Positions 4,948 to 22,678 of a stretch of 34,918 bases of DNA are shown here, piece after piece (within the stretch, counting starts at the first letter, position 1; every line of letters begins with the position of its first letter). The stretch lies in contig JAITEX010000067.1 of the NCBI GenBank assembly GCA_031281765.1, positions 1-34,918 of the forward strand, read 5' to 3'. The notes beneath the pieces are model-generated. The model did no database searches. It saw nothing but the letters and a program-made list of their open reading frames with translations, and had not been told where the DNA came from. A program made the position numbers and the translations under genes. The stretch comes from Eubacteriales Family XIII. Incertae Sedis bacterium. Its GTDB lineage: Bacteria > Bacillota > Clostridia > Peptostreptococcales > Anaerovoracaceae.

Positions 4948-5060
4948 AATTCGTGCGAATTTTTGCTGTATAATTTTACGAAGAATATTTATTTGAATTA
5001 TATGCGAAAGTGCGTTATATTTTTATTATAGATAGATATTTATATTAGGAGGTGATGATA

Positions 5061-5315
5061 ATGCCAAGCATTAAACCGGTATCGGATTTGAGAAACTATA
5101 ATGAAGTATTGCGAAATGTGAGCGCCGGCCGTCCAGTTTTTTTGACGAAAAACGGCAGGGGACGGTTTGCGATTATTGATATGGATGATTACGAGAAAAC
5201 GCAAGCGACCATAGCGCTTTTGACCGAGCTTTCGAAAGGAAGAACAAGCGGTGAAGAAAAAGGCTGGATTGCGGCAAGGGATGTTGAGGCCGAATTGGGG
5301 CTGAGCCTTGGCTAA
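5061..5315 (+). CDS. Phd/YefM-family type II antitoxin
   Basis: MPSIKPVSDLRNYNEVLRNVSAGRPVFLTKNGRGRFAIIDMDDYE is a typical Phd/YefM N-terminus. AGGAGG at 5047-5052 favours the ATG at 5061 over the starts at 5052/5055. Confidence 0.8.
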   Translation: MPSIKPVSDLRNYNEVLRNVSAGRPVFLTKNGRGRFAIIDMDDYEKTQATIALLTELSKGRTSGEEKGWIAARDVEAELGLSLG

Positions 5316-5640
5316 GGTAGTTTACTCGCCTGCCGCTCGCGCGGATATGGTTGAAATCAGGAATTATATCCGAGACGAACTTCAAAATCCGGCGGCAGCC
5401 GAACGTGTTCTGACGAGGATTGCAAAATCTTTACGGTTACTTGAGGACGCGCCAAGAATCGGTTCGCCGCTTTCCTCGGTAATTGATATTGATACCGAAT
5501 ATCGATTTCTTATTTCCGGGAACTATTTGTCATTTTATCGATATTATGACGATACCTGTTATATAGACCGCATACTCTATCGTCGGCGCGATTATATATC
5601 GATTCTTTTTGGCATTGACGCAGAGCCGGACGAAACTTGA
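5308..5640 (+). CDS. ParE/RelE-family type II toxin
   Basis: 110 aa. Its TTG start overlaps the antitoxin stop by 8 nt. The sequence (VVYSPAARADMVEIRNYI...RILYRRRDY) fits ParE-like plasmid-stabilisation toxins. Confidence 0.75.
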   Translation: MAKVVYSPAARADMVEIRNYIRDELQNPAAAERVLTRIAKSLRLLEDAPRIGSPLSSVIDIDTEYRFLISGNYLSFYRYYDDTCYIDRILYRRRDYISILFGIDAEPDET

Positions 5641-6306: not shown

Positions 6307-8346
6307 ATGGAGAATAATAGAGTGATAATGGGTCGGCTCGCGGCCCTGCGCGACGCGATGCGCGCGGCGGGGCTTGACGCCTACCTCGTCTTCGACGCGG
6401 ATACGGTCGGGAGCGAATCCCCCGCGGAGCGCTTTCTGACGCGCACCTGGCTGACGGGGTTTGACGGCTCGGCCGGCTGCGCCGTTATCACGGCAAACGA
6501 AGCGCGGCTGTGGACGGACGGGCGCTACTGGCTTCAGGCTGAGAAGCAGCTTGCCGGTACGGGCATAGAGCTGATGCGATCGGGCAAAGCCGGCGTACCG
6601 AAGCCGGAAGAATTTTTAGCGGCGGCTCTGCACGCCGGGGATGCGGTCGGCGTCTGCGGGGAGACTTTTCCCGCCGCGGAGTACGACGGGCTTGCGGCGG
6701 CGCTGCAGCCGCAGGGCATAGCGGTACGCGCAACCGAAGATTTGTTTGAGAAACTCTGGACAGTAAACCGGCCGGAGATGCCGACGGGAGAGATATTTTT
6801 GCTGGAGGACGCAGCGCGGGCAAAAGGCGCGGGCGCGGCGACGGGCGCAGAAGATATGCACAGGGGGACGGTTCCCTTGTGCGATTTTGTATACAATTCA
6901 ACACAGCGGAACCGTCCCCCTGTGTTGAACGCGGCGGCGCGAAATCTGGCAGCCGTGCGGGCTGAACTGAAGAAGCGCGGCGCCGACTATGCGCTTATAA
7001 CGGACCTCGCGTCGGTCGCGTGGCTCTTCGGGTTCCGCGGCTCTGACATCCTGTGTACGCCGGTTGCCTACGCGCGCGCCCTCGTATCGCAGAGCGACGC
7101 CATTCTCTTTATCGACAATGCGAAAGTCCCTGCGGATGTCTTGTCAAGCCTGGAGATTGACGGGGTTGCCGTCAGGGATTTCGGAGGCATGGAGCATAGT
7201 CTGCGCGGGCTTGCGCCCGGAACGCGCCTTACCTATGACCCTGATACCGTCAGCGCTGCTCTGCGAAATTCCTTAGCCGCCGACATCACGCGTATTGAAG
7301 CGCCCGACCCCGTCCTGCTCCTCAAGTCCCTGAAGACGGACGAAGAAATTGGGAACCTGCGACGCTGCCACGAACGCGACGGCAGGGTTATGGTGCGTTT
7401 TCTCATATGGCTGGAGGAGTCCGCGGGAAAGATAACCGAATACGACGCGGCCGGTAAGCTGACGGAATTGCGGGCCGAAGACCCGCTCAGCCTCGGGGAT
7501 TCGTTCGAGCCGATATGCGCATATGGCGCGAACGGGGCCATCGTTCATTATCATGCGGAGCCGGACAGCGCCGCGGTAATTGGTGAGAGGACATATGCAC
7601 AGGGGGACGGTTCCCTTGAGCAATTTTGTATACAATTTAACACAGTGGAACCGTCCCCCTGTGTCGGCGGTCGTCGTACGGAGCCGGACAGCGCCGCGGG
7701 ACTCGGCGAGGCGGGGTTCTTTGTGACGGACAGCGGCGGGCAGTATGTGGACGGGACGACGGATATTACGCGGACCGTGCTGTTGGGGGATAGTGGCGAC
7801 AGCGCCCGCCGCGACTATACCCTCGTACTGAAAGCCCATATCGCCCTCGCCTCGGTCGAGTTCCGCCACGGAGTGGCGGGAGCGCATCTCGATGCGCTCC
7901 CGCGGCGCGTCCTCTGGCGCGAAGGCGTAGACTACGCGCACGGTACGGGACACGGCGTCGGGTACGTACTCGGCGTACATGAGACGCCGCCAGGCTTCAC
8001 CTCTTCGGCGAATGCGGGCTCCGGCGCCCGGACGCCCATAGAACCGAATATGGTCTTTTCAAATGAACCCGGTCTCTACCGCGCCGGCGCCTATGGCATT
8101 CGCATCGAAAACCTCGTGACGCCCTACGTTTCGCGGGAAAACGAATTCGGCAGGTTCCTGAAGCTCGAGACCCTCTCGCTCTGCCCCATCGATCTCACGC
8201 CCGTCATTGCTGAAATGCTGACAATAGATGAAATAGAATGGTTGAACGCCTACCACCGCGAAGTCTACGCGCGCCTCGCCCCCGGCCTTACGGAAACGGA
8301 ACGCCGCTGGCTTGCTTCGCGCACCCGCGAAATATCGACCCCTTGA
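6307..8346 (+). CDS. Xaa-Pro aminopeptidase (M24B, aminopeptidase P family) with two in-frame repeat insertions
   Basis: Creatinase-like N-domains plus an M24 catalytic domain (DSGGQY..GTTDITRT, HGTGHGVG, SNEPGLY, IRIEN). ATG at 6307 (MENNRVIMGRL) with RBS AAAGGGGA. The ORF-track start at 6223 lies inside repeat copy 1. Confidence 0.9.
   Translation: MENNRVIMGRLAALRDAMRAAGLDAYLVFDADTVGSESPAERFLTRTWLTGFDGSAGCAVITANEARLWTDGRYWLQAEKQLAGTGIELMRSGKAGVPKPEEFLAAALHAGDAVGVCGETFPAAEYDGLAAALQPQGIAVRATEDLFEKLWTVNRPEMPTGEIFLLEDAARAKGAGAATGAEDMHRGTVPLCDFVYNSTQRNRPPVLNAAARNLAAVRAELKKRGADYALITDLASVAWLFGFRGSDILCTPVAYARALVSQSDAILFIDNAKVPADVLSSLEIDGVAVRDFGGMEHSLRGLAPGTRLTYDPDTVSAALRNSLAADITRIEAPDPVLLLKSLKTDEEIGNLRRCHERDGRVMVRFLIWLEESAGKITEYDAAGKLTELRAEDPLSLGDSFEPICAYGANGAIVHYHAEPDSAAVIGERTYAQGDGSLEQFCIQFNTVEPSPCVGGRRTEPDSAAGLGEAGFFVTDSGGQYVDGTTDITRTVLLGDSGDSARRDYTLVLKAHIALASVEFRHGVAGAHLDALPRRVLWREGVDYAHGTGHGVGYVLGVHETPPGFTSSANAGSGARTPIEPNMVFSNEPGLYRAGAYGIRIENLVTPYVSRENEFGRFLKLETLSLCPIDLTPVIAEMLTIDEIEWLNAYHREVYARLAPGLTETERRWLASRTREISTP
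6856..6926. repeat. Nested-palindromic repeat element, copy 2 (inside the aminopeptidase CDS, translated)
   Basis: atgcacagggggacggttcccttgtg-cgatt-TTGTATACAA-ttcaa-cacagcggaaccgtccccctgtgtt. Translated as MHRGTVPLCDFVYNSTQRNRPPVL. Confidence 0.85.
7556..7699. mobile_element. In-frame insertion module: repeat copy 3 (core 7595-7664) bounded by 21-bp direct repeats
   Basis: cggagccggacagcgccgcgg occurs at 7556-7576 and again at 7679-7699, offset 123 bp = 41 codons. The core atgcacagggggacggttcccttgag-caatt-TTGTATACAA-tttaa-cacagtggaaccgtccccctgtgt lies between them. Confidence 0.75.
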
Positions 8347-8371
8347 CAAATAAAATCCATGCGCGTATAAT
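8343..8371 (+). promoter_or_regulatory. Sigma-A consensus promoter of the NifX-GNAT/ABC/NifDK-like-1 operon
   Basis: TTGACA (8343-8348), 17-nt spacer, TATAAT (8366-8371). The -35 overlaps the aminopeptidase stop codon. Confidence 0.75.
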
Positions 8372-8481: not shown

Positions 8482-9339
8482 ATGAGTTACAAAATCGCGT
8501 TTGCAAGTTCTGACGGAATACATATCGATCGCCATTTGGGCGAGGCTAAGACATTGACGATCCTGACAATAGGCGAGACAAAGAGCGTCACGACAGAAGT
8601 TTTGACAACGACGCTTGCGCCGGGCTCCGGAGGACGGGATGCTTCGCATCCCCATGCGCACGCGCACGTCAACCTTGCGCCCCTTTTAGATTGTGAATTT
8701 GTCGTGGCGCAGAAGATCGGACGCGAAATGTCCAAAGCGCTTTTGCGCAACAATATCTCCGCTATTGAACAGACGGGATCCATCGAGGAGGCGGCAACGG
8801 GCATCATCAAATTTAAGGAAACGCAGGAAAGGCGCCGGCATATAAGCAGGGATGACCTTGTCGTGGAAAAGGCGCACCCGCATGAATTGAATCAAATATC
8901 CGCCATCTATGTTCGGGCCCGCGTCAGGATGAACGAAAACGGCATCTACCAGTGGGATGAAAGATACCCGTTCGAAGAGATTACCCGGGCGGACATCAGT
9001 AATGGAAAGCTCTACATCCTCAAATTGAACGACAGGATCATCGGGGCGGCGACCCTTAACGATAGCTTGGAGTTCCCGGACGCGACGGAACTTGAGCAGG
9101 TTTATGTCATCCACCGGTTTTGCATCGACCCCGATTTTCAGAAGCGCGGCTTTGCCCGGCGCTTTCTCTTCTCCCTCTTTGAAATCGCACAAAGGGAGGG
9201 TATACATGAGATACACTTGGCCGTCGCGGAGCAGAACTTCATTGCGATAAGCTCATACCGGAAAGCCGGGTTTCGAAACCTTGAGCGCATGGATACAGGC
9301 GGGTTCGGCTATTTTCTGCATATGGCACGGAAGATATAG
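8482..9339 (+). CDS. Fusion protein: NifX/NifB-C-terminal-like (FeMo-cofactor-binding family) domain + GNAT N-acetyltransferase
   Basis: N-terminal ~115 aa (YKIAFASSDGIHIDRHLGEAKTLTI...VVAQKIGREMSKALLRNNISAIE) resembles the dinitrogenase FeMo-co biosynthesis (NifX/NafY/NifB-C) fold. The C-terminal ~160 aa has GNAT motif A (HRFCIDPDFQKRGFARRFL). One continuous ORF with RBS AGAAGGGAAAG. Confidence 0.8.
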   Translation: MSYKIAFASSDGIHIDRHLGEAKTLTILTIGETKSVTTEVLTTTLAPGSGGRDASHPHAHAHVNLAPLLDCEFVVAQKIGREMSKALLRNNISAIEQTGSIEEAATGIIKFKETQERRRHISRDDLVVEKAHPHELNQISAIYVRARVRMNENGIYQWDERYPFEEITRADISNGKLYILKLNDRIIGAATLNDSLEFPDATELEQVYVIHRFCIDPDFQKRGFARRFLFSLFEIAQREGIHEIHLAVAEQNFIAISSYRKAGFRNLERMDTGGFGYFLHMARKI

Positions 9340-9348
9340 GAGGGCTAC

Positions 9349-10047
9349 ATGGGAGAGAAATATTTTCGGTGGGATTATGTTCTGGATTATTTTCCGAAGC
9401 TGTTTGAAAAGCTTCCGGTCACCTTGTCCATCGTACTGATGGCGACTCTGTTCGGCAGCATTATCGCCGTATTCGTCGCCTTTATACGGCTTGAACGCAT
9501 ACCCGTCCTGAATCAGCTTTGCGTCGTATTTGTCTCCTTTATGCGCAGTACACCCATTATCGTGCAGATGTTTCTGCTTTTCTTCGGCTCTGTGATGATC
9601 TTCAACACTCTGTTCGGCATCAATATCATCACCTATAACAAAATCTGGTTTGTCTACGCAGCCTATGCGCTGAATCTGAGCGGGTTCATGGCCGAAATAT
9701 TCCGCGGCGCCATCCTCGGCGTCCCGAAAAAACAGATGGACGCAGCTATCTCTGTCGGCCATAACAGGCGTCAAGCGTATCTGCATATCATCATTCCGCA
9801 GGCGGCCGTCATCGCGTTGCCCACACTCGGTTATACGATTGTCGCGTTGCTGCAGGACTCAACGCTGGCTTTCACCTTCGGCATCATCGATGTCATCGGG
9901 GCAATCAACGGAGTGTCCGCCTCTACGGGCCACAAGCTCGAAGGCTACTTCGACGCCGCCTTTATGTTCGCTATACTCGCGATCCTCGTTGAGAAACTGT
10001 TCGGATTCTTGGAGAAAAAAACAACCCACCAGTCGAGAATCACATGA
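9349..10047 (+). CDS. Polar amino-acid ABC transporter permease (His/Glu/Gln/Arg/cystine-type)
   Basis: 232 aa, multi-TM, with an EAA-like loop (MAEIFRGAILGVPKKQMDAAISVG). RBS AGGAGGG 9 nt after the preceding stop. Confidence 0.9.
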   Translation: MGEKYFRWDYVLDYFPKLFEKLPVTLSIVLMATLFGSIIAVFVAFIRLERIPVLNQLCVVFVSFMRSTPIIVQMFLLFFGSVMIFNTLFGINIITYNKIWFVYAAYALNLSGFMAEIFRGAILGVPKKQMDAAISVGHNRRQAYLHIIIPQAAVIALPTLGYTIVALLQDSTLAFTFGIIDVIGAINGVSASTGHKLEGYFDAAFMFAILAILVEKLFGFLEKKTTHQSRIT

Positions 10048-10110
10048 CCGCAACCCGGAGTGTGTCTCAAATATATGAAGTTGCGTTTTATTGAAAGAAA
10101 GGAAAGTATC

Positions 10111-10944
10111 ATGAAAACGAAAATAACGAAAATTCTCATTGGCCTGCTGACGCTGAGTCTGTTGTTTGCTGTCGGCTGTTCAAAGTCGAACGACAAGGAC
10201 AGCGGCGAGGCAACCGACGGAGAAAAGACGAAGCTGATCGTCAGTTCGCAGCCGGGCGAGTACCCCCCGCTTATCTACGTGAATGAAAACGGGGAAAATG
10301 ACGGCATAGACTTCCGCATAATCAAGGCTTTGCAGGAGGAATTGCCACAGTACGAATTCGAAGTCGTTGCGCAGGATATGGCGACGACGCTGACCGCGCT
10401 CGATTCAGGAACAGTGGATGTGGGGCTCTGCATGTTCGAGTACAATGAACAGCGCGCCGAGAAATACGTCTACTCCGATGTCGGCTATATGGAATACGGT
10501 CAGTACATCGTCGTGCCGAAGGGCAATCCCCTCGGTATCAAGTCGCTCGACGATCTGGGCGGCAAACGCGTCAGCACCTACCCGTCATCCAATACCGCGT
10601 TTATTCTCGAGGATTATAACGCAAATCACCCGGACAACCAGATAGAGATCGTCTATGTGGCCGCAACGGACGCAATCCGCAAGGGCCTGCAAAGCGGAGA
10701 TACGGACGCGACGCTTTCGACCAAATGGGGCGTTGATCTGGAAGTTGCGCAGTTTGGCGACTATGAGGAGATTGCGGGCGAATCCATCTGGCCAGGCCAG
10801 GCCTATGTCCTCTTCCCGCGCACAAACGAAAACAAGCAAGTACAAGCGGACGTGAACGCCGCGCTCAAACGGCTTGTCGATTCCGGAGAAGCGCAGCGCA
10901 TCTACGACAACCTGCTTGAGGAATGGAAGGCGACCTTGAAATAG
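10111..10944 (+). CDS. Amino-acid ABC transporter substrate-binding lipoprotein (PBP type 3 family)
   Basis: Signal peptide with lipobox LLFAVGC. ATG at 10111 (MKTKITKIL) with RBS GAAAGGAAAG preferred over 10060. Periplasmic-binding-protein-like sequence. Confidence 0.85.
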   Translation: MKTKITKILIGLLTLSLLFAVGCSKSNDKDSGEATDGEKTKLIVSSQPGEYPPLIYVNENGENDGIDFRIIKALQEELPQYEFEVVAQDMATTLTALDSGTVDVGLCMFEYNEQRAEKYVYSDVGYMEYGQYIVVPKGNPLGIKSLDDLGGKRVSTYPSSNTAFILEDYNANHPDNQIEIVYVAATDAIRKGLQSGDTDATLSTKWGVDLEVAQFGDYEEIAGESIWPGQAYVLFPRTNENKQVQADVNAALKRLVDSGEAQRIYDNLLEEWKATLK

Positions 10945-10968
10945 GCGGAGCCGGAAAGCGAAGGGACT

Positions 10969-11682
10969 ATGTCAACCGTATTTGATTTTGATTTTTTTAT
11001 AGAATGCCTTAAGTCGGGCGCGGCGCGGATTCCGGTAAATCTTTACGTGGCCGCGGCGTCGGTATTCTTCGGAATGATATTCGGACTCATTATCGCGCTC
11101 ATACGGGTATTCCGGGTGCCGGTGCTGTCACCGATTTTCCGCTGGCTGGTCACCATACTAAAGGGCGTTCCTGTCATTCTTATGTTGCTCGTCTTCTATG
11201 TTCTCGCAGCGGATTACTTCAATTTAATTATGGAGTATTTCGGAATCGACTACACCTTTCGTCAGTTGAACAAGGCGATTATCGCTATAATCGCCTTGTC
11301 CGTCCTTTCATCCATAGGGCTTTCCGAGTCCTTCCGCGGCGCGCTCGCATCGGTGAAGAAGGGACAGTATGACGCGGCCTATTCCGTCTGGCTTACGAAG
11401 CGGCAGGCCCTCGTTTACGTCATTATACCGCAGGCCTTCCCTATCGCCGTACCGACGCTCTGCAATTATATTATCGGGATGATCAAGGCCGGCGCGCTCG
11501 CCGCTATGATTTCGGTTGTAGACATCATGAACGGCGCGCTCATCCCTGCCAACGCGAACTATCGATACCTCGAAGGGTACACGGCAGCCGCGTTGATTTA
11601 TTGGGTTGTTTGCGCGACGCTCGAAAAGGTATTGAATATCGCGGAAAAACGTTTCGCGAGCAAAGTAAGGGAGGTTGCTTAA
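10969..11682 (+). CDS. Polar amino-acid ABC transporter permease (second subunit)
   Basis: 237 aa, multi-TM, with an EAA-like loop (LSESFRGALASVKKGQYDAAYSV). Confidence 0.9.
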   Translation: MSTVFDFDFFIECLKSGAARIPVNLYVAAASVFFGMIFGLIIALIRVFRVPVLSPIFRWLVTILKGVPVILMLLVFYVLAADYFNLIMEYFGIDYTFRQLNKAIIAIIALSVLSSIGLSESFRGALASVKKGQYDAAYSVWLTKRQALVYVIIPQAFPIAVPTLCNYIIGMIKAGALAAMISVVDIMNGALIPANANYRYLEGYTAAALIYWVVCATLEKVLNIAEKRFASKVREVA

Positions 11683-12440
11683 TGATAGAGGTAAAGGGGC
11701 TGAAAAAGGCCTTTGGGCAAAACCAGGTACTCAAAGGGGTGGGCTTCCACGTCAATGAAGGGGATGTTATGACGCTGCTCGGCGTGAGCGGTTCGGGGAA
11801 AACGACGCTCATTCGTTGCCTGAATTATTTGGAGAGCCCCGACGAAGGGGTGATCCGCATCGATGACCGGACGGTGGACGCGCAGAAAATCACCAAGAAG
11901 GAAATCATCGAACTGCGGAAAAAGACCGCTATGGTTTTCCAGACCTACGACTTGTTCCTGAACCTGAACGCCCTGCAAAATGTTACGGAAGGGCTTATCC
12001 GGGGCGGCAAAATCCCGAAGCCGGACGCGGAGGATATTGCGCGTGATTTGCTTGAAAAAGTGGGGCTGTCCGCAAAATTGGAAAGCAAGCCCTATCAGCT
12101 TTCGGGCGGCGAACAGCAGCGTGTCGGGATAGCGCGCGCGCTCGCGCTCTGCCCTAAGGTCATCCTGTTTGACGAGCCGACTTCGGCGCTGGACCCGGAG
12201 GTGATCGGCGAGATATTGGATATTATCAAGGCGGTGGCGCGGAGCGGCGTTACCATGATTATCGTGACGCACGAGATGGAATTCGCGTTTAGCGTTTCCA
12301 ATAAGGTAGTCTTTATCGATCAGGGGGAAATCGTGGAGGAAGGGTCGCCGCGCGAGGTATTTCTGGAATCCAGTCAGGAACGCACGAAATCCTTCTTAGC
12401 CCGGTCGAATTTCCGGTTCCAACCGGAATATTATTTGTAA
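11682..12440 (+). CDS. Amino-acid ABC transporter ATP-binding protein
   Basis: Walker A GVSGSGKTT, signature LSGGEQQRVGIARAL, Walker B ILFDEPTSALD. The ATG at 11682 overlaps the permease stop (TAATG). The ORF-track start at 11601 is rejected. Confidence 0.92.
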   Translation: MIEVKGLKKAFGQNQVLKGVGFHVNEGDVMTLLGVSGSGKTTLIRCLNYLESPDEGVIRIDDRTVDAQKITKKEIIELRKKTAMVFQTYDLFLNLNALQNVTEGLIRGGKIPKPDAEDIARDLLEKVGLSAKLESKPYQLSGGEQQRVGIARALALCPKVILFDEPTSALDPEVIGEILDIIKAVARSGVTMIIVTHEMEFAFSVSNKVVFIDQGEIVEEGSPREVFLESSQERTKSFLARSNFRFQPEYYL

Positions 12441-12452
12441 AGGAGTAGCAAC

Positions 12453-13949
12453 ATGGGTACAATCAACATCGATGCCGGCACGGTCCCTATCCGGGAAACG
12501 CGGTTAGGCTCCATAACGGGGTATTATGGCGACCTGGAGGATCTGTCGACCAAGTCCTCCTGCGGGAATTTGAAGAACAGGGAACGCTGCTTCAGCCAAT
12601 GCAGCCTCTGCCTGAATATGTGTTCCATCGGGGAGTTCACCTCGCTGCGCGATGTGGCGGTCATCAACCACGCGCCCGCCGGGTGCAATGCGGGCTCCGC
12701 AGCCACCAAGGTGTTTGCCAAACAGATAGCGGAACGCATCGGCAAGGAGTATAATTCCGTGCTGGTCGGAACTGACCTCAATGAGAGTGACACCGTATTC
12801 GGCGCCACAGAATCGCTCCCGGACATCGTCCGACAGGTATATGAGAATTATCGTCCGAGCGCTATAGTAATCGCCTCCTCCTGCGTAAGCGGCGTCATAG
12901 GCGAGGACATCGAAAGCGTCACGAGCGAATTGGACAGACAATACGACATACCCATCTTCCCGATACAGTGTGAAGGCTTCCGCTCAAAGATTTGGCAGTC
13001 GGGCGCGGACATCGCCGACCACGCCTTTGTCAAATACATTGTCAAACCGCCGCAGGAGAAACGCAATGTAATCAATTTCAAGAACTTCTTTGAAAGCGAG
13101 CGTCAGCAGATCACGGAGATTTTTGCGGAGCTGGGTGTGACGCCCCAATTCCTCTATCTCAATTCCACGATTGAGGAGGTCGAACATCTTTCGGAATCCC
13201 TTGCGACGGTCAGCATCTGCGGCACGCTTGGCACCTATCTCGGCAACGCCCTCGAAGAACTTTACGGCGTACCTTATATCCGCAGCCTCAACCCGAACGG
13301 CATCACGGGATTCGAAAGCTGGCTTCGCGAGATAGGCAAAAAGATAGGGAAAAGCGCGGAGGTTGAGAACTATCTCACGCGTGAGAAGGCCAAGTATATC
13401 GATAAAATCGAGGAAGTGAAGGACGAACTGAAGGGGCTGACCGCCGTCATCGGCATGGGCCCCGGCTATGCTTTCGATGTGGGACGCGTTTTGCAGGAAT
13501 TGGGGCTTGAAATCATCTGGACGACTGCCTGGCACCTTGACTATCGTTACGACAACGGGGAAATGCCGACGTCCTTGCGCTATATGACGGAACACTCCGC
13601 AAATAATTTCGGCGTAAGCGTAGCGGATCAGCAGAATTTCGAGATAATGCATACGCTGAAGACGTTGAAGCCGGATGTCTATTTCTCGCGCCATCCGGGA
13701 ACCACGGTATGGGCGGTCAAACAAGGCATTGCATCCGTATTCGTCGCGGATGAGTATACGATATTCGGGTATCGCGGCACCTTGAATTTTGCCAATATGA
13801 TACTTGACGCGGTGCGCAACCGCAGTTTTGAACAGAACCTTGCCGCGCGGACGAAGCTGCCGTACACGGACTGGTGGTACGAGCAGAACAATCAGGCGAT
13901 GCTTTTGAATGAGGGCGAAACCAGACTGCGCGAGGCGGCGGCCCACTAG
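12453..13949 (+). CDS. Nitrogenase component-1 alpha-like subunit (NifD/NifE-like), paralog 1
   Basis: NHAPAGC, ASSCVSGVIGEDIESV and IQCEGFRSK parallel NifD HGPVGC, SECPIGLIGDDIESV and VRCEGFRG. VSICGTLGTY parallels the cofactor-Cys segment LVHCYRSMNY. RBS AAGGAG. Confidence 0.85.
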   Translation: MGTINIDAGTVPIRETRLGSITGYYGDLEDLSTKSSCGNLKNRERCFSQCSLCLNMCSIGEFTSLRDVAVINHAPAGCNAGSAATKVFAKQIAERIGKEYNSVLVGTDLNESDTVFGATESLPDIVRQVYENYRPSAIVIASSCVSGVIGEDIESVTSELDRQYDIPIFPIQCEGFRSKIWQSGADIADHAFVKYIVKPPQEKRNVINFKNFFESERQQITEIFAELGVTPQFLYLNSTIEEVEHLSESLATVSICGTLGTYLGNALEELYGVPYIRSLNPNGITGFESWLREIGKKIGKSAEVENYLTREKAKYIDKIEEVKDELKGLTAVIGMGPGYAFDVGRVLQELGLEIIWTTAWHLDYRYDNGEMPTSLRYMTEHSANNFGVSVADQQNFEIMHTLKTLKPDVYFSRHPGTTVWAVKQGIASVFVADEYTIFGYRGTLNFANMILDAVRNRSFEQNLAARTKLPYTDWWYEQNNQAMLLNEGETRLREAAAH

Positions 13950-13969
13950 CGGGGGAGGAAGAGGCAAAT

Positions 13970-15277
13970 ATGGCACAGATATTGGATCAACCGAGATATA
14001 AATGCGCTCTTGCGGCAATGCAGACCGTACACGCCATTCCGCGGGCCATACCCATCCTGCACGCGGGTCCGGGGTGCGGCACGAAACTGAACGACAATAC
14101 CGGCATCTCAGGGTATTATTCACCGAATATATTTCCGAGCACGAATATCGGCGAAAAGGAGGTGGTCTTCGGTGGCGAGGGCAAACTGCGAACCACCATC
14201 GAAAACGCGCTGAAAATAATTGACGCCGACCTCTTTGTTGTGCTGACCGGCTGCACGGCCGAGATCATAGGGGATGACGCCGAAGAAATCGTACACGAAT
14301 TTGCGGACGCGGGGAAGCGCGTCATCTACGTGAACACCCCCGGGTTCAAGGGGTCGAATTATCAAGGGCACGATTGGGTACTGACCGCCCTTTTCGAGCA
14401 GTATCTACCGCGCGAACGCGTCCCCGTAAACGCGAAGCAGGTGAACATATTCCCGGGGCCTCCGGTGCAGGATCCCTTTTGGCACGGCAACCTGAAGGAG
14501 CTGGAATCCCTGTTCCGCGAAATCGGCCTTGAGCCGAATATCATCTTCGGCTATGGCAACGGCGTTTCGGCCGTCGACCGCATACCGGCAGGCGCTTTCA
14601 ATATCCTCGTCTCGCCGTGGGTCGGCCTGGACAGCGTCAAGGTCCTCGAAAAGAAATACGGGACGCCGTACCTGCATTATCCCGTGCTGCCGATCGGCGC
14701 GACGGAGACGAGCAAGTTCCTCCGCGCCGTAGGGAAATTCACGAAGGTTGACGAGCTTCATGTCGAGCGCGTCATCGCCGAACATGAGAAGGAATATTAT
14801 TACTTTATCGAACGCTATTCGGATACCTTTCTCGAGCTGAGGATACTCTCCAAACGCTTCGTCGTCATATCCGACGCGCAGTACGCGATTGCCGCGACAA
14901 AGTTCCTCGTCAACGACCTCGGCTGGAACCCGGGCGGTACGCAGTTCGTTACGGACAACACGCCGGAGGAATACCGCGAAAGCGTCCGCTCCGAATTTGA
15001 AAAGCTCAATTACGGCATCAAGGCGTCGATGGAATTTTCGACAAACGGGTTTGAGATACAAAAGAAGATCAGGGAATCCGGATTTACCGCGCCGCCGATG
15101 ATCTTCGGCAGCAGTTGGGATAAGAGCTTCGCAAAGGAGATATATGCCCCCTTCCTGAACATCTCCTATCCTACGTATGACCGGCTCATCATCAACAGCG
15201 GCGTGGTCGGCTACGCCGGCGGCCTTAAGTTCCTGGAAGACATTTATACCACGGCGGTGCAGTCGCTTATTCTGTAA
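13970..15277 (+). CDS. Nitrogenase component-1 beta-like subunit (NifK/NifN-like), paralog 1
   Basis: YKCALAAM, HAGPGCG and LTGCTAEIIGDD parallel the three NifK P-cluster Cys motifs (ACQPLGA, HGSQGC, TTCMAEVIGDD). RBS GGGGGAGGAAGAGG. Confidence 0.85.
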   Translation: MAQILDQPRYKCALAAMQTVHAIPRAIPILHAGPGCGTKLNDNTGISGYYSPNIFPSTNIGEKEVVFGGEGKLRTTIENALKIIDADLFVVLTGCTAEIIGDDAEEIVHEFADAGKRVIYVNTPGFKGSNYQGHDWVLTALFEQYLPRERVPVNAKQVNIFPGPPVQDPFWHGNLKELESLFREIGLEPNIIFGYGNGVSAVDRIPAGAFNILVSPWVGLDSVKVLEKKYGTPYLHYPVLPIGATETSKFLRAVGKFTKVDELHVERVIAEHEKEYYYFIERYSDTFLELRILSKRFVVISDAQYAIAATKFLVNDLGWNPGGTQFVTDNTPEEYRESVRSEFEKLNYGIKASMEFSTNGFEIQKKIRESGFTAPPMIFGSSWDKSFAKEIYAPFLNISYPTYDRLIINSGVVGYAGGLKFLEDIYTTAVQSLIL

Positions 15278-15343: not shown

Positions 15344-15394
15344 GCGTATAAGAACGCGGTATAAATAACAGGCATGCCCGCGCGGGAGTACGCT

Positions 15395-15964
15395 ATGAGC
15401 AAAAAAGAGGAAATTATCGGGACGACCATCGATCTGTTCAAACGTGAAGGCTGTGAAAACGCGACGATACAGCGGATTTGCGAGGTCAACAAAATCACGA
15501 AAGGTACGTTCTATTATCATTTCAAGTCCAAGGGCGATCTTATCTATGCCTTCTTTGAATTGCAGGGCAACAGTATCCTGAGTATCTTCCCTCACATTGT
15601 AGCGGAGACCGACGACAGGAAGAAGATATGGATCGCCTACGAGTTTTGGCTCGATATGATGCTGCAGCTCGGGGAAAAATTGCTCCACGGCCTCTTTGTT
15701 TTCGAATATGAGAACGGTTTCGATTTCTTCTCGCCCTACCCGCGCATCCCCCGCGGCAACCTGCCCGACCCCTATAATATGATTATTGAACTTATCAAAA
15801 GCGCGCAGGCGTCCGGCGCTATTCGCAACAACGCGCCGCATGAACGCCTTATCATCACCCTGAACGCCATGATGACCACCATCCTGATGGATTGGTCCGC
15901 AGGCGGCCGCGACTACGATCCGAAAGAGGAAATACGCGCGGGGTTCGACGCTATTCTCAATTAA
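15395..15964 (+). CDS. TetR/AcrR-family transcriptional regulator
   Basis: N-terminal HTH: IIGTTIDLFKREGCENATIQRICEVNKITKGTFYYHFKSKGDL. ATG at 15395 with GGGAG RBS preferred over 15374. Confidence 0.88.
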   Translation: MSKKEEIIGTTIDLFKREGCENATIQRICEVNKITKGTFYYHFKSKGDLIYAFFELQGNSILSIFPHIVAETDDRKKIWIAYEFWLDMMLQLGEKLLHGLFVFEYENGFDFFSPYPRIPRGNLPDPYNMIIELIKSAQASGAIRNNAPHERLIITLNAMMTTILMDWSAGGRDYDPKEEIRAGFDAILN

Positions 15965-16000: not shown

Positions 16001-16030
16001 TTGACAAGGATAGTTGGCATGTGGTATAAT
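16001..16030 (+). promoter_or_regulatory. Sigma-A promoter of the NifH-like gene (extended -10)
   Basis: TTGACA (16001-16006), 18-nt spacer, TGgTATAAT (16022-16030). Confidence 0.75.
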
Positions 16031-16085: not shown

Positions 16086-16976
16086 ATGGCGAAAAACGGC
16101 AAAGCGATCAAGCAGATTGCGATTTACGGCAAAGGGGGTATCGGCAAATCGACCACCACCTCGAACCTGAGCGCGGCATTGGCCGATCTCGGCTATAAGG
16201 TCATGCAATTCGGGTGTGACCCGAAAGCGGACTCCACGAATACCTTACGGGACGGTTCATATATTCCTACCGTGTTGGAACTATTGCGGGACCGGGGCAG
16301 CGTAAACGCCCACGACGCGATTTTTGTGGGATACAACGGCATATACTGCGTGGAGGCCGGCGGCCCGGCGCCCGGCGTGGGGTGCGCGGGGCGCGGTATC
16401 ATCACCGCGGTGCAATTGCTGAAAGAACAGGATATTTTCGAAGAACTCGATTTGGACTATGTGATCTACGACGTCCTCGGCGACGTTGTCTGCGGCGGCT
16501 TCGCGGTGCCCATCCGGGAGGGTATTGCGCAGCACGTCTTTACGGTTTCGTCCTCGGATTTTATGGCCATATACGCCGCCAACAATCTGTTCAAGGGCAT
16601 CCAGAAATATTCGAACTCGGGAGGCGCCCTCCTCGGCGGCATTATCGCGAACTCCGTTTCACCCGAATCCAATTATCAGCGATCCATTATCGACGATTTC
16701 GCCGCACGGACAAGCACGCAGATCATGCAATATATCCCCCGTTCCGTTACGGTGACCCAGAGCGAACTTTCGGGAAAGACGACCATAGAGGCCGCGCCGG
16801 ATTCCGCTCAGGCCAAGGTGTACCGCGAACTCGCGCGCCGCATCGACGAGCATGTCGACTCCAAGACGCCAACGCCTTTGGAACCTTCGCAATTGCGCGA
16901 CTGGGCCGCAGAATGGTCCGACCAGATACTCGCCATCGAAACCGGCGAGGTCCGCACGGAAGCGGCCAACATCTAA
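16086..16976 (+). CDS. NifH-like ATPase / Fe-protein (nitrogenase iron protein family)
   Basis: [18 protein letters not shown] (Walker A), GCDPKADST (switch I), and [4Fe-4S] Cys in [12 protein letters not shown] and [17 protein letters not shown] at 16086 with RBS AAAGGGA. Confidence 0.92.
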
Positions 16977-18391: not shown

Positions 18392-19678
18392 TTACAGATT
18401 GTTGAACAGGTCCTCAACGAGGGTTATCGCGCCGCGGTATCCGCTATAGGTGCGGTTGAGAATCAGCTGGTCGGTGATGGGATACGCCGCAACGAATATC
18501 TGCGCGTCACGATTGAAGGCGATTTCCCGTTCCAATGAACTGCCGACAAACAGCGAGACGTCGTTATACTCGTCGAGGGCCCGGCCCACATCGTAATTAT
18601 CGGTGGCAAAGACGACATCCGGCCCTTTGACATATTCGAGATCCTGTATCCGGTCCCGTATAGCCGCCTTATCCGCTTCGCGTGACACCGGTTCGGTCAC
18701 CACGGTGACCACCGGGGTGAACCCGAGGTCGTTCGCGAGCGCGTGCGTCATGCCTATCGCCACATTGGCGTCCCCGATGACGGCGAATTTCTTCCACGAC
18801 AGAGCGCCGATGGCCGTTTCGTAATAATTATAGACGTAAGACTCCTCCTCGTAGATGACATCCTCGACGAGTTTGCCGTCTATAGCAAGCGCGTCCGCAA
18901 CCTGCCGGACGAGGCGCGTCGTATCGGTCGCGCCGACCGGCAGCCCCGGGAAACGGAGGCTCGGCACGCCGAACCTCTTTTCAAATTTCCTTGCCTCGCC
19001 TTGCAGGAGCCACGGATTGACTATGACGTTCAGCGCCGCCGCGCCGGCATTTTTTATATGTTCAATGCCCTGGCCGTGCGAGAAGAAGGTATTCACCTCC
19101 AGACCGAGCTTGGAAAAGATGCGCACTAATTCCTCAAACGTGCCCGCCCAATAGGGGTCATGATAGGGGAAGATGCCGAGCAGGTTGATGAGATTGGCCT
19201 GCCTGGGCCGCCCCGGCTCCACGAGCTGGCTCAGGAAGGTGGATATGGTCGTTTCGTATCCGAGGTTGCTGTCCCCCGCAAACCCCGGCGTGGGGATGTT
19301 ATAGACCGGGAAGCCTTCCGCGCGGAACCCCTTCGCCACCGTCTCCGTATCATCGCCGATAATGCCCGATGTGCAGCCGTTGAGGATGAAGTAGGCGTCC
19401 GCGTCGATAATGTCGATACTGCCGCGAATCGTATCGGTGAGTTTTTCAATGCCGCCAAACACCACCTCGCGTTCGAGCATAAGCGAGCAGGGAAGGGACA
19501 CGCTCGAGAGGAAATGCGGCGACTTGAGTCCCGCCTGCCCCGCTTCCCCCGCGCTGGTCTGGAGTCCGCATCCGGGTCCCGAATGAAAGATCGGGCAGAA
19601 TTTGTTGACGGCTGACAGGGTGCTGTTGATGCCGCCGAGTACGCAGCTGCCCCGGGGGTTCTCGGTAACGATGGACAT
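18392..19678 (-). CDS. Nitrogenase component-1 beta-like subunit (NifK/NifN-like), paralog 2
   Basis: GSCVLGG, HSGPGCG and LNGCTSGIIGDD give all three NifK-type P-cluster Cys motifs. The start lies 1 nt after the NifD-like-2 stop. Confidence 0.85.
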   Translation of the reverse strand: MSIVTENPRGSCVLGGINSTLSAVNKFCPIFHSGPGCGLQTSAGEAGQAGLKSPHFLSSVSLPCSLMLEREVVFGGIEKLTDTIRGSIDIIDADAYFILNGCTSGIIGDDTETVAKGFRAEGFPVYNIPTPGFAGDSNLGYETTISTFLSQLVEPGRPRQANLINLLGIFPYHDPYWAGTFEELVRIFSKLGLEVNTFFSHGQGIEHIKNAGAAALNVIVNPWLLQGEARKFEKRFGVPSLRFPGLPVGATDTTRLVRQVADALAIDGKLVEDVIYEEESYVYNYYETAIGALSWKKFAVIGDANVAIGMTHALANDLGFTPVVTVVTEPVSREADKAAIRDRIQDLEYVKGPDVVFATDNYDVGRALDEYNDVSLFVGSSLEREIAFNRDAQIFVAAYPITDQLILNRTYSGYRGAITLVEDLFNNL

Positions 19679-19679
19679 A

Positions 19680-21131
19680 TTAGATTACCTCCTTTATAAA
19701 CTTGAACGGGTCTTCGTCATACCAGCTCTCGCGATACGGCAGGCGCGCATACTTCGACAGCTTCTTGTTGAATCCCGGGTTTTCGATTTGGGCCGCGATC
19801 TTATTCCCCAGCCACACGATGCCGTCATAGCCCATAGTCGGCCGTTTCGGATCCAGAATATGCGTGGTCGGAATGCCGAACCTCGACGACCAGGAGGGTA
19901 CGCCGATAAAGACGTCCGGTTTCAGTTTGTTCACTATATTTACCTGTTCAAAGGGCAGCATATTGGCGACGTCGATGAGGTAATCCCCGTGAATATCGTT
20001 CAGAAACGCTATGTCGTCCTGAGCGTCAAGGTCGTAGACGGGCGTTTCAATGCCGAGCAGTTTCATGCCGAAATCATCGATAAGGGTGGCCGCCGCGAAC
20101 GAACGGCCCGTGCCGCCGCAGATAAACACCGACTTGCCCTGTAGCTTCAGCTTGATCTTGTCCAATTCCGGCTGAATGCGCGCGTGTTCGGTGGCGATGA
20201 TCTCTTCGACTTCATCCCCCTTGCCGGTGATCTCGGCAATGGCGCGATACCACTTATCCGTATTGCGTATTCCCACCGGCATCACCGTATGGGCGTAAGG
20301 AATGCCGAAGTCATGTTCGATGTCCTTCATAAACTCATCGGCGAACACCTTGCAGATGGACGTGGACGCTTCGGCGTTCGGTATATTCAGAACTTTGTCA
20401 TAGTCGCTGAAGAAGGGCAAAAAGTTGCTCTTCAATCCTATCCTCCGCAGCAATTTTTCTATTTCGAGCTGATCCGCGAAGCTCACCGTCATCGGCGCGA
20501 AGAGATTGATAAGGCCCTTCTCCTTCTTCGGGACCGCGCCTTTTAACACGAATTTCGATATGGCGATAAAAGCGGCGTCGTACCCGGAAGCGCAGATTTT
20601 CGACCGAAAACCGTCGCAGTGCACGGGGACGATGAGCGCCTCCGTATCCGGCTGCGCCTCGCGGACGATGGCGTCAACATCATCGCCTATTATACCGGAA
20701 GCGCAGGAGGTGAACACGAAAATCAGCTTTGGCTTGTACCGTTCGGACGCAAGCCGGATGGATTCGCGCAGCTTCCCCTCGCCTCCCATAATGACGTCGC
20801 TCTGATCGAGGTTTGTTATGAGGATCTTCGGTGACGTGATTTTCTCGGCGCCGCGATGGATCTGCGCGACACGGTACATATCCGCCCCCATGGTGATACA
20901 CCCGACACAGCCCTGCGGCGCGTGCGCGATGAGCACGGCGTCATTGACCGAAAGTAACGCGGATATGCTGTTCAGCTCCTGGCATTGATAGCTCTGGCTG
21001 AACGTGCGATCAGCGTTCTTAATACATTTCTTCTTGAAATCCTGCTCGATTTGCAGACTGCTGCCCGCAAGATCGAGATACGTATCGGTGTATTCGCGTT
21101 GTTCCCGAATACCGGAATAGGTTCTTGGCAT
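19680..21131 (-). CDS. Nitrogenase component-1 alpha-like subunit (NifD/NifE-like), paralog 2
   Basis: HAPQGC, FTSCASGIIGDDVDAIV, VHCDGFRSK, STSICKVFADEF (cofactor-Cys position) and GIPTTHILD (candidate His). The ATG at 21131 (MPRTYSG) follows a GGGAGGAG RBS, so the ORF-track start at 21149 is rejected. Confidence 0.85.
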   Translation of the reverse strand: MPRTYSGIREQREYTDTYLDLAGSSLQIEQDFKKKCIKNADRTFSQSYQCQELNSISALLSVNDAVLIAHAPQGCVGCITMGADMYRVAQIHRGAEKITSPKILITNLDQSDVIMGGEGKLRESIRLASERYKPKLIFVFTSCASGIIGDDVDAIVREAQPDTEALIVPVHCDGFRSKICASGYDAAFIAISKFVLKGAVPKKEKGLINLFAPMTVSFADQLEIEKLLRRIGLKSNFLPFFSDYDKVLNIPNAEASTSICKVFADEFMKDIEHDFGIPYAHTVMPVGIRNTDKWYRAIAEITGKGDEVEEIIATEHARIQPELDKIKLKLQGKSVFICGGTGRSFAAATLIDDFGMKLLGIETPVYDLDAQDDIAFLNDIHGDYLIDVANMLPFEQVNIVNKLKPDVFIGVPSWSSRFGIPTTHILDPKRPTMGYDGIVWLGNKIAAQIENPGFNKKLSKYARLPYRESWYDEDPFKFIKEVI

Positions 21132-21175
21132 CTTTCTCCTCCCATACATCCGTCTCCGTCAATATAGCCTAATTA

Positions 21176-21398: not shown

Positions 21399-22301
21399 AT
21401 GCGGAGAAGGACGGATTTCGTGAAAACATACAGAAACGGAAGTTTGATAAACCAACACCCCTGCTTCAACCATGGGGCGAAAGCAGGCAGGATTCACCTG
21501 CCGGTTTGCCCTTCTTGCAATATTTTCTGCAATTTTTGCGTAAGAAAAACGGATGATGAGGAATGGGATGTCGTGCGGCCCGGGCTTTCGTCGGGATTGA
21601 TCGCACCGGAGGAAGCGGGAAGATATGTCGCCGACGCATTGCACTTCTGCCCGGACATTTCGGTGGTCGGTATCGCGGGGCCGGGAGATACGCTTGCAAC
21701 CGATCATGCGCTCCGGGCCTTCGCCTCGGTTCACGAGCGGTTTCCGCATCTGCTGAAATGCATGAGCACGAATGGCCTGCGCCTGTCGGAACGTTTGGGC
21801 GAAGTGATTCGCGCCGGAGTGGATACGCTGACCGTAACGGTGAATGCCGTTGATCCCGGGATCCTCAAGGATATATGCTCAGGCATTATCTATCAAAACA
21901 AGCTGCTCTCGGGCGCCGAAGGCGCCGAAATCCTGATCGCGAATCAGCTCGGCGGCATTAAGGCGGCAGCCTTGGCCGGCATTACCATAAAGGTGAATAT
22001 GGTGCTGATACCGGAGATCAATGGCGACCACGTTAAACAGGTCGCGCATGAGGTCGGAAACGCGGGAGCTTCTATCTTCAACATCATCCCTCTTATCCCG
22101 CAGAACAAGCTCAGCGAATGTGCGGCGCCGAACTGCGGCCAGATTGCCGATGCGCGCGCGGACGCGGAAACGTTTCTGCCCGTATTCAAACATTGCCAAC
22201 ATTGCCGTGCCGACGCGGTAGGGCTTCTGGGTGGCCGGGATTTCGGCCGGGAGGTCTTCGCGAATAAGGAAGCGGTAGCCGACACATTCTCCCACGGATG
22301 A
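21399..22301 (+). CDS. NifB-like radical SAM protein (stand-alone SAM domain, no fused NifX domain)
   Basis: HPCF...GRIHLPVCPSCNIFCNFCVRK (HPC motif + CX3CX2C), VVGIAGPGDTLA, KCMSTNGL and the C-terminal HCQHCRADAVGLLG closely parallel NifB. The start is uncertain: ATG at 21399, or GTG at 21420 behind GGAGAAGGA. Confidence 0.85.
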   Translation: MRRRTDFVKTYRNGSLINQHPCFNHGAKAGRIHLPVCPSCNIFCNFCVRKTDDEEWDVVRPGLSSGLIAPEEAGRYVADALHFCPDISVVGIAGPGDTLATDHALRAFASVHERFPHLLKCMSTNGLRLSERLGEVIRAGVDTLTVTVNAVDPGILKDICSGIIYQNKLLSGAEGAEILIANQLGGIKAAALAGITIKVNMVLIPEINGDHVKQVAHEVGNAGASIFNIIPLIPQNKLSECAAPNCGQIADARADAETFLPVFKHCQHCRADAVGLLGGRDFGREVFANKEAVADTFSHG

Positions 22302-22327
22302 GCTGCCTGAAACGGAAGGTGACATTT

Positions 22328-22678
22328 ATGGCATATAGAGCTGCCTTTGCAACGAGCGACGGATTGACCGTTTACAAACACTTCGGACAAGCGAACGAAT
22401 ATCTCGTCGCCGACATCCTGGAAGACCATTATGAAATCGTAGCTCGCAGAAACGTAGTCCCTCCCTGCAACGCCCGCGGGCACTCGGAAGCGGCGTTCGA
22501 CGCGGTACTTGACGCCTTATCCGACTGTGAAGCCATTTTCGTCGGCAAGGTCGGAGTGGGAGCTGCGGAATACATCGCAAGCCGGGGTATAAACGTATTT
22601 GAAACCCCGGGTGTGATCGATGAGATTTTTTTAAAACAAAAATCGCAGGCGCCTCTTGATAAAAAACGGGATATATGA
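22328..22678 (+). CDS. NifX/NifB-C-terminal-like FeMo-cofactor-binding family protein
   Basis: MAYRAAFATSDGLTVYKHFGQANEYLV...IFVGKVGVGAAEYIASRGINVFE. ATG at 22328 with RBS GGAAGGTGA preferred over 22298. Confidence 0.8.
   Translation: MAYRAAFATSDGLTVYKHFGQANEYLVADILEDHYEIVARRNVVPPCNARGHSEAAFDAVLDALSDCEAIFVGKVGVGAAEYIASRGINVFETPGVIDEIFLKQKSQAPLDKKRDI

Follow-up and report, generated by a model that had tools for sequence, protein, structure and literature searches.

A 34,918-nucleotide stretch from an Eubacteriales Family XIII. Incertae Sedis bacterium (contig JAITEX010000067.1 of assembly GCA_031281765.1; the whole stretch is called the window below) encodes a nitrogenase-like gene pair on its forward strand, D1 (12453..13949, 498 amino acids) and K1 (13970..15277, 435 amino acids). 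With a probability of roughly 0.7, we propose that D1K1 is the catalytic component of a Group IV-E system that would hold a P-cluster and an 8Fe cofactor anchored by a cysteine and a histidine, and that would cleave organosulfur compounds reductively for sulfur supply. D1K1 most likely helps a termite-gut bacterium to scavenge sulfur, not to fix nitrogen. The window is part of a 1.56-Mb, 73%-complete metagenome-assembled genome, and the only public sequencing run that contains it is a termite-gut DNA metagenome, which may be the source sample; no RNA run was listed among the public sequencing runs as containing it. Genes of nitrogenase-like enzymes are frequently mistaken for a sign of nitrogen fixation, above all in metagenomes from termite guts, and D1K1 is not a nitrogenase.

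Fold and metal-cluster ligands of D1K1

A preliminary description of the window had presented D1 and K1 as a NifDK-like pair. Both open reading frames (ORFs) were found, and both gave full-length matches to the Pfam family Oxidored_nitro (PF00148), with E-values of 5e-70 (237 bits) for D1 and 1e-71 (242 bits) for K1 against a cut-off of 28.6. A phmmer search of the PDB revealed that the best matches were the subunits of methylthio-alkane reductase (MAR) from R. rubrum, namely MarD (E 9e-88) and MarK (E 3e-103), and that the best NifD and NifK matches reached about 1e-30 and 1e-21, respectively. The AlphaFold2 model of D1, which had a mean predicted local distance difference test score of 85.6, was structurally closest to 9FMG_A with template modelling (TM) scores of 0.82/0.87, and NifD chains scored about 0.65. 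Every nitrogenase and NifEN subunit equivalog model of NCBIfam remained far under its cut-off: D1 scored 139 bits with nifD (cut-off 654) and 153 with N2-ase-Ialpha (486), K1 scored 92 bits with nifK (427), and nifE gave 150 bits against 505. A bona fide nitrogenase of Groups I-III (NifDK, VnfDK or AnfDK) was rejected as a candidate on these missed cut-offs, the absence of a His442 residue and the replacement of the Gln191/His195 pair.

Residues were paired by HMMER alignment to the solved MarDK structures (9FMG/9D9U). Conservation was counted over 120 D sequences, namely D1 and the 119 homologs that matched it best (58-85% identical), and over 78 K sequences, namely K1 and 77 orthologs obtained by translation of related loci. 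The available passages of the structure paper give MarD Cys66, Cys91 and Cys158 together with MarK Cys32, Cys56 and Cys121 as the P-cluster ligands (PMC12552129). D1 Cys53, Cys78 (in NHAPAGC; codon 12684..12686) and Cys144 (in ASSCVSG; codon 12882..12884) paired with the three MarD residues and are the equivalents of NifD Cys62, Cys88 and Cys154, and K1 Cys12, Cys36 and Cys95 (codons 14003-14005, 14075-14077 and 14252-14254) paired with the three MarK residues. The latter are the only cysteines in K1 and were conserved in 78 of 78 K sequences. The alignment, run against MarDK and NifD chains, bore out the ligand cysteines that the preliminary description had listed by eye in the alpha-like and beta-like subunits. 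Its suggestion of a P-cluster-type 8Fe site is supported by six ligand cysteines that are present, aligned to the solved MarDK ligands and invariant in the relatives.

The cofactor ligands were also retained, with the histidine on a different loop from that of NifD. The [Fe8S9C] cluster of MarD is held by Cys270 and His429, and earlier sequence analyses overlooked His429 owing to its different loop, as stated in the passages available (PMC12552129). There and in the available part of a 2026 review, this histidine is placed on a MarD-specific Loop I beside Arg428, not at the NifD His442 position (PMC12552129, PMC13474568). We found that D1 Cys256 (in VSICGT; codon 13218..13220) paired with MarD Cys270, the NifD Cys275 equivalent, which agrees with the earlier placement of VSICGTLGTY at the NifD Cys275 site. 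D1 Arg413-His414 in the FSRHPG stretch (codons 13689..13694) paired with MarD Arg428-His429, so that His414 is the equivalent of the Loop I ligand of the 8Fe cofactor. The His442 equivalent of the NifD-type chain 9p1x_A fell within an insertion between D1 Val431 and Ala432, with no D1 residue aligned. The preliminary description was right that the His442 position holds no histidine, but the histidine of this family sits elsewhere, and its proposal of a cluster anchored by cysteines only is unsupported because Arg413-His414 aligns with MarD Arg428-His429 and does not vary among the 120 D sequences. The apparent missing histidine is a known trap that was resolved by the 2025 MarDK structure.

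We also weighed whether D1K1 might carry a P-cluster plus a cysteine-only cluster, or might be a NifEN-like scaffold that matures a cofactor, for example for the second DK pair of the window, D2K2. Such a role would fit the lack of a histidine aligned with NifD His442, the extra N-terminal cysteines described below, and the proximity of D2K2; in a set of 80 genome loci with D1 orthologs, in which neighbours were counted within 9 kb, a D2-type pair (at least 50% identical) stood beside the D1-type pair in 17. It is very improbable given the invariant counterpart of the MarD histidine ligand, the retention of the MarD active-site residues as Trp181 and His361, and the observation that MAR needs no NifEN-type scaffold. 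Moreover, 63 of the 80 loci had no D2-type pair within their flanks. Only two Oxidored_nitro matches were found in the 2.6 Mb of Lachnospira multipara LB2003, both from a D1K1-type pair, which argues that an enzyme of this type works alone and not as a scaffold, and which weakens the scaffold role suggested in the preliminary description. With nifE far under its cut-off and no other component-1 enzyme in this strain, a NifEN-type scaffold was rejected.

The residues around the cofactor site resembled those of MarD. According to the passages available, the MarD variants C270A, H429L/F and W195A were inactive, while changes at His450 (near the 442 loop), His194, Phe199, Asp200 and Cys73 had little or no effect (PMC13474568). 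D1 keeps Trp181 (codon 12993..12995), the equivalent of the essential MarD Trp195 at the NifD Gln191 position, and His361, the equivalent of MarD His375. It differs from MarD at Ile180 (MarD His194), Ala185 (Phe199), Gly60-Glu61 (Cys73-Gln74) and Tyr435 (His450); on this alignment, D1 departs from the MarD active site only at positions that are dispensable in MarD. Upon alignment with 9p1x_A, NifD Gln191, His195 and Val70 paired with D1 Trp181, Ala185 and Gly60/Glu61, respectively. In the region of the NifD motif SQSLGHH, the preliminary description correctly saw no histidine at the His195 position, and its reading that the glutamine was kept resulted from a misalignment by one residue; D1 Gln182 is aligned with a Ser, and 112 of 120 homologs have Ala at this place. 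Cys46, Cys53, Cys57, Cys78, Cys144, Cys173, Cys256, Trp181, His361, Arg413 and His414 of D1 were each conserved in 120 of 120 sequences.

The N-terminal stretch CFSQCSLCLNMC (D1 residues 46-57; 12588..12623, plus strand) contains Cys46, Cys50, Cys53 and Cys57, as seen from alignment, conservation and codon reading. It had been taken for an additional CX3CX2CX3C motif without a counterpart in the paralog D2. The string is present, and D2 has T, S, C and N at the four positions, but Cys53 is the P-cluster ligand itself and Cys50 is not conserved. Cys50 (codon TGC, 12600-12602) is peculiar to D1, the residue being Ser in 119 of 119 homologs, and the pattern conserved among homologs is Cys46-X6-Cys53-X3-Cys57. 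The extra cysteines are therefore Cys46 and Cys57, both invariant in the clade (120/120), which makes them specific targets for work on the handling of P-cluster redox states. Cys46 pairs with MarD Cys54, a residue mentioned in none of the available passages of the structure paper (PMC12552129). In the AlphaFold2 model, Cys53 starts a helix at residues 54-63 with Cys57 one turn on, and Gly60-Glu61 pair with MarD residues that line the cofactor; as modelled, Cys57 may be positioned between the two clusters. Extra cysteines near the P-cluster ligands (Cys50, Cys60 and Cys81) have been remarked in Group IV-A NfaD, and MarK Cys52 serves as a seventh cysteine that takes on ligation when MAR is oxidised, according to the part of the source available (PMC13474568). 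The position of MarK Cys52 is Ala32 in K1 and, across the 78 K sequences, Ser in 69, Ala in 8 and Cys in 1.

K1 also showed an unusual replacement, as Ser57 (14138-14140) is Cys in 77 of 77 orthologs; a cysteine gained at D1 position 50 and one lost at K1 position 57 are reciprocal one-off changes in the same enzyme. An independent Logan contig spans 12453-14806 and agrees with the assembly save for one difference at 12788, and since it agrees at the codons for D1 Cys50 and K1 Ser57, neither is an assembler artefact. Additionally, many homologs in the D1 clade have a second cysteine right after the Cys78 ligand (Gly-Cys-Cys), and D1 position 79 is Asn.

Clade placement of D1K1

A tree of 41 rows was built from D1, D2, D3 (the D subunit of a third pair in the genome), five D1 homologs and 33 full-length 50%-cluster representatives. 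A split with a support of 100 divided it in two according to whether the Arg-His loop is present; D2, from which the Arg-His Loop I is entirely absent, was in the loopless half. The loop-bearing half contained two clades: one (support 98) comprised D3 with P0131 and P0138/P0134/P0136, and the other (99 in the Shimodaira-Hasegawa-like approximate likelihood ratio test) comprised the D1 group with P0126-P0129, P0132, P0133 and P0135. P0138 marks the MAR clade, Group IV-C, because it scored 616 bits to 9FMG_A. The scores to MarD were 399 bits for D3, 298 for D1 and 222 for D2. The approximately unbiased (AU) test rejected the D1 group plus three IV-C-side representatives as a clade with p 8e-46, the group having been named after the tree was seen.

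Group letters were taken from the catalogue of nitrogenase-like systems by North and co-workers (mBio 2026), in which the visible starts of NflD genes in the construct table were translated by eye (PMC13753814, supplement 4). As far as these starts reach, the E-labelled entries of Butyrivibrio sp. MC2021, Bacteroides xylanolyticus and Clostridium arbusti 58b carry the D1-clade consensus around the first P-cluster cysteine, and the N-terminus of Acetivibrio mesophilus (E) resembles by eye that of P0126, which lies in the 99-supported clade of D1. Clostridial C-labelled entries resemble R. rubrum MarD and are unlike D1, and an A-labelled entry resembles D3. The organisms of the D1-clade loci are not named in the available portions of the supplements, where 'Lachnospira' matched only other Lachnospiraceae rows (PMC13753814). 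On this combined placement, with the letter E assigned partly by eye from partial table cells, D1K1 is a Group IV-E system that lies outside the MAR clade. At least 1196 proteins, among the candidates scored, were D1 orthologs at E 1e-20 or better, and the best 120 were all at least 58% identical. Their hosts are Clostridia, Lachnospiraceae, Oscillospiraceae, termite-gut spirochaetes and a few enterobacteria.

This placement bears on whether D1K1 is a MAR isozyme that carries out the R. rubrum MarDK chemistry on dimethyl sulfide, ethyl methyl sulfide (EMS) and methylthio-ethanol (MT-EtOH) and releases methanethiol. MarDK is the closest solved relative of D1K1, and every residue reported essential in MarD is kept. 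Nevertheless, we regard an isozyme as unlikely. D1 falls outside the clade of the MarD-like P0138, as the AU test also indicated, and its score to MarD is lower than that of the IV-A-like D3 of the same genome. It has no N-terminal signature of clostridial Group C MarD, 77 of the 78 K sequences, K1 among them, have Ser or Ala in place of MarK Cys52, and an amino-acid-type ABC importer, such as the one encoded beside D1K1, would be unneeded for volatile sulfides. When 11 of the 32 catalogued Group IV-E systems were expressed in R. rubrum, some with a compatible NflH group, cleavage of MT-EtOH and EMS remained under the cut-off of 10 umol/L/OD (OD, optical density), and the tested A, D and F systems were likewise below the physiological cut-off (PMC13753814). 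Only Group IV-C is the MAR clade in that work, and the chemistry of the other clades is not known (PMC13753814). Heterologous tests can fail through the host, as an incompatibility with one NflH group was shown for a Clostridium system.

The same placement bears on nitrogen reduction. D1K1 shares the Group IV superclade and the ligand set with the Group IV-A Nfa system, which is implicated in weak diazotrophy, and a termite gut, the apparent source of the metagenome, is a nitrogen-poor habitat; an alternative nitrogen-reducing enzyme could be imagined on these grounds. We consider this hardly to be entertained: the protein of this genome that lies in the IV-A clade is D3 and not D1, D1 has Trp181, Ala185 and Gly60/Glu61 in place of the N2-reduction residues Gln191, His195 and Val70, the nifD and nifK equivalog scores fall far under their cut-offs, and the neighbours of D1-type genes are sulfur amino-acid genes and not nitrogen-regulation genes.

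Gene neighbourhood and the proposed role in sulfur supply

From 8482 to 15277, genes lie on the same strand with spacings of 0-25 nt or with overlaps, D1 and K1 being the last two, and they are apparently co-transcribed as one putative operon. A promoter-like site upstream of the first gene (8343..8371) matches the sigma-70-like consensus at 12 of 12 positions, as a consensus match only. The first gene (8482..9339) encodes a NifX-like Nitro_FeMo-Co domain (PF02579, residues 12-107) fused to a GNAT acetyltransferase domain (PF00583, residues 156-264), and the GNAT part of this fusion was found again in only 1 of the 80 related loci. It is followed by a polar amino-acid-type ABC importer consisting of permease 1 (9349..10047, BPD_transp_1), a solute-binding protein (SBP; 10060..10944, SBP_bac_3), permease 2 (10969..11682, BPD_transp_1) and an ATPase (11682..12440, ABC_tran). 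The ATPase was taken to begin at the ATG overlapping the stop of the permease gene, in an ORF that opens at 11601. The closest solved relatives of the SBP in a PDB phmmer search were Listeria Lmo2349 (4GVO, E 2e-27) and B. subtilis YtmK, also called TcyK (2O1M, E 5e-26); the cystine transporter TcyJKLMN is encoded by the ytmI operon (PMC9239247).

The reductase and cofactor genes lie downstream. NflH, a NifH-like ATP-dependent reductase (16086..16976; Fer4_NifH, E 1e-99), was taken to start at MAKNGK and is the sole strong NifH-like match in the recovered genome, a second, weak match (32 bits) being on another contig. A TetR-family regulator gene (15374..15964, TetR_N) and a promoter-like site (16001..16030; 12/12 with TG, a consensus match only) separate K1 from NflH; close relatives have the NifH-like gene immediately next to the DK pair. 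After NflH, a MatE gene and D2K2 lie on the opposite strand. They are followed by NflB (21399..22301), a NifB-like radical-SAM protein (Radical_SAM; TIGR01290 at 234 bits, under its cut-off) and the only NifB-like copy in a search of the recovered genome, and by a separate NifX-like gene that overlaps its end (22298..22678, Nitro_FeMo-Co).

Taken with the ligand set, these genes suggest how the proposed enzyme might work. D1K1 would be the catalytic component, presumably as a D2K2-type heterotetramer (two D and two K subunits, not the paralogous pair of that name). At each D/K interface, a P-type [8Fe-7S] cluster would be bound by D1 Cys53, Cys78 and Cys144 and K1 Cys12, Cys36 and Cys95, and each D subunit would hold an L-cluster-like [Fe8S9C] cofactor with Cys256 at one end and His414 at the other. 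As with their MarD counterparts, Arg413, Trp181 and His361 would form part of the lining of the site. Synthesis of the cofactor would fall to the NifB-like radical-SAM protein, with NifX-like carriers, and electrons would arrive singly from the NifH-like ATPase. The reaction is probably a reductive one that breaks a bond, most likely C-S, of an organosulfur compound. In this organism, the compound would probably be amino-acid-like and would enter through the TcyK-like importer, and the released sulfide or thiol would feed cysteine and methionine synthesis.

The neighbourhoods of D1 relatives, like the apparent co-transcription with the importer, point towards an anaerobic cleavage of organosulfur compounds. 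In the 80 loci, the core neighbours were a K1 ortholog (78), NifH-like (60), NifB-like (57) and NifX-like (51) genes. Cysteine-synthase-type PALP genes were found in 47, pyridoxal phosphate (PLP) enzymes of Cys/Met metabolism in 27, Tcy-like SBPs in 25, aminotransferases in 16, Fe-alcohol dehydrogenases in 12, M20 deacylases in 9 and SulP in 4. Of the 80 loci, 68 had one or more neighbours from the set PALP, Cys/Met PLP enzyme, O-acetylhomoserine sulfhydrylase, M20, SulP and SBP; among the 55 loci that span 15 kb or more, the number was 51. The neighbour families were confirmed by Pfam on a sample of 12 loci. The D1-type operons of spirochaete and Bacillota relatives (L004; L023, 11997-14237) carry an Fe-alcohol dehydrogenase and a class I/II aminotransferase; in L004 (2748-5857), the two are fused into one protein of 728 amino acids with a PALP gene beside it.

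Several points weigh against the proposed sulfur-releasing enzyme. We infer the identities of the D1K1 clusters solely from ligand conservation, and cleavage of a C-S bond by D1K1 is an analogy, not a finding, because no Group IV-E activity is known and the 11 tested systems were under the cut-off. Within the window, no cysteine synthase or Cys/Met PLP gene lies beside D1K1. The association with an importer is that of a minority, as 25 of the 80 loci have an SBP and 24 have an ATPase that is at least 50% identical. The whole window gave 0 Rfam matches at gathering thresholds and no riboswitch that would hint at sulfur control. The naming of the AU-test group after the fact and the partly by-eye assignment to Group E, both described above, count in the same direction.

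A more specific version is conceivable but doubtful. Group IV-E might release sulfur without oxygen from imported S-substituted cysteine-type amino acids, Cys46 and Cys57 might act as switchable P-cluster ligands like MarK Cys52, and the gain of D1 Cys50 with the loss of the K1 cysteine at position 57 might represent the relocation of a ligand. The Bacillus ytmI-type pathway uses oxygen-dependent monooxygenase steps, which the nitrogenase-like reductase would then replace. A limited literature search found no paper that links nitrogenase-like enzymes with S-methylcysteine, ytmI or tcyJ. The variant with an N-acetyl-S-alkylcysteine substrate appears less likely, GNAT genes being present in 1 and M20 deacylases in 9 of the 80 loci.

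The two other DK pairs of the genome showed their own features. D2K2 (18392-21149, minus strand) keeps six P-cluster-type cysteines, and D2 His430, in the GIPTTHILDP stretch, lies close to the loop that carries NifD His442 and is shared by the 48%-identical P0154. D3K3, on contig C50 (5426-13108), is Group IV-A (Nfa-like) in appearance and belongs to a series of genes on one strand that also encodes an O-acetylhomoserine sulfhydrylase, a GNAT protein and an SsuA-type sulfonate ABC system. Within the 73% of the genome that was recovered, one NifH-like and one NifB-like gene apparently serve all three pairs. A type II toxin-antitoxin pair, consisting of a Phd/YefM antitoxin and a ParE toxin, was also found at 5052-5640 of the window.

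Comparison with known systems

Earlier publications already cover the nitrogen fixation-like family with its ligand set, its relocated histidine and its neighbourhoods of sulfur genes. Of mild interest here are the invariant Cys46 and Cys57, the unique gain of Cys50 with the loss of the K-subunit Cys57, and the operon link to a TcyK-like importer. An importer that is apparently co-transcribed with D1K1 provides a concrete substrate lead for the large Group IV-E, and the question of the substrate can be tested directly in cultured relatives, such as Lachnospira multipara, whose only nitrogenase-family enzyme is a D1K1-type pair.

The closest counterparts of D1K1 are the Group IV-E NflDK systems (PMC13753814). 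In the visible gene starts, translated by eye, these have, like D1, Arg-Cys-Phe/Tyr-Ser-Gln followed by Cys-X3-Cys at the first P-cluster cysteine and a K-subunit N-terminus like that of K1, and the nflB/X-H-D-K gene set is the same as here. D1K1 differs from these relatives in the gained D1 Cys50 and the absent K1 Cys57, in the genes of its putative operon, which include those for a TcyK-like importer and a NifX-GNAT fusion, and in the TetR gene that separates it from nflH.

The MarDK of R. rubrum (Group IV-C; 9FMG, 9D9U) has in common with D1K1 the fold (TM 0.82/0.87 for D1), the six P-cluster cysteines, the cofactor cysteine, the Loop I Arg-His and the equivalents of Trp195 and His375, and D1K1 probably shares its dependence on NifH-like and NifB-like partners. 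D1 belongs to a different clade and is 32% identical to 9FMG_A in Foldseek and 35% identical to the MarD-like P0138. MarD His194, Phe199 and Cys73-Gln74 are Ile, Ala and Gly-Glu in D1, and MarK Cys52 is Ala in K1. In addition, D1 has the extra invariant Cys57 one helical turn past the P-cluster ligand, and the tested IV-E relatives of D1K1 had no MAR activity above the cut-off.

NfaDK of Endomicrobium proavitum (Group IV-A) has, as far as the available passages describe it, the same ligand inventory, extra cysteines near the first two P-cluster ligands and a numbering nearly identical to that of D1, with ligands at Cys53 and Cys78 (PMC13474568). Its extra cysteines include Cys60 and Cys81, compared with Cys46 and Cys57 in D1, and the IV-A-like protein of this genome is D3 and not D1. 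Finally, the Mo-nitrogenase NifDK shares with D1K1 the Oxidored_nitro fold, the P-cluster ligands and the Cys275 equivalent, whereas D1 has no His442 residue, replaces Gln191, His195 and Val70, and would supply the histidine ligand of its cofactor from a different loop.

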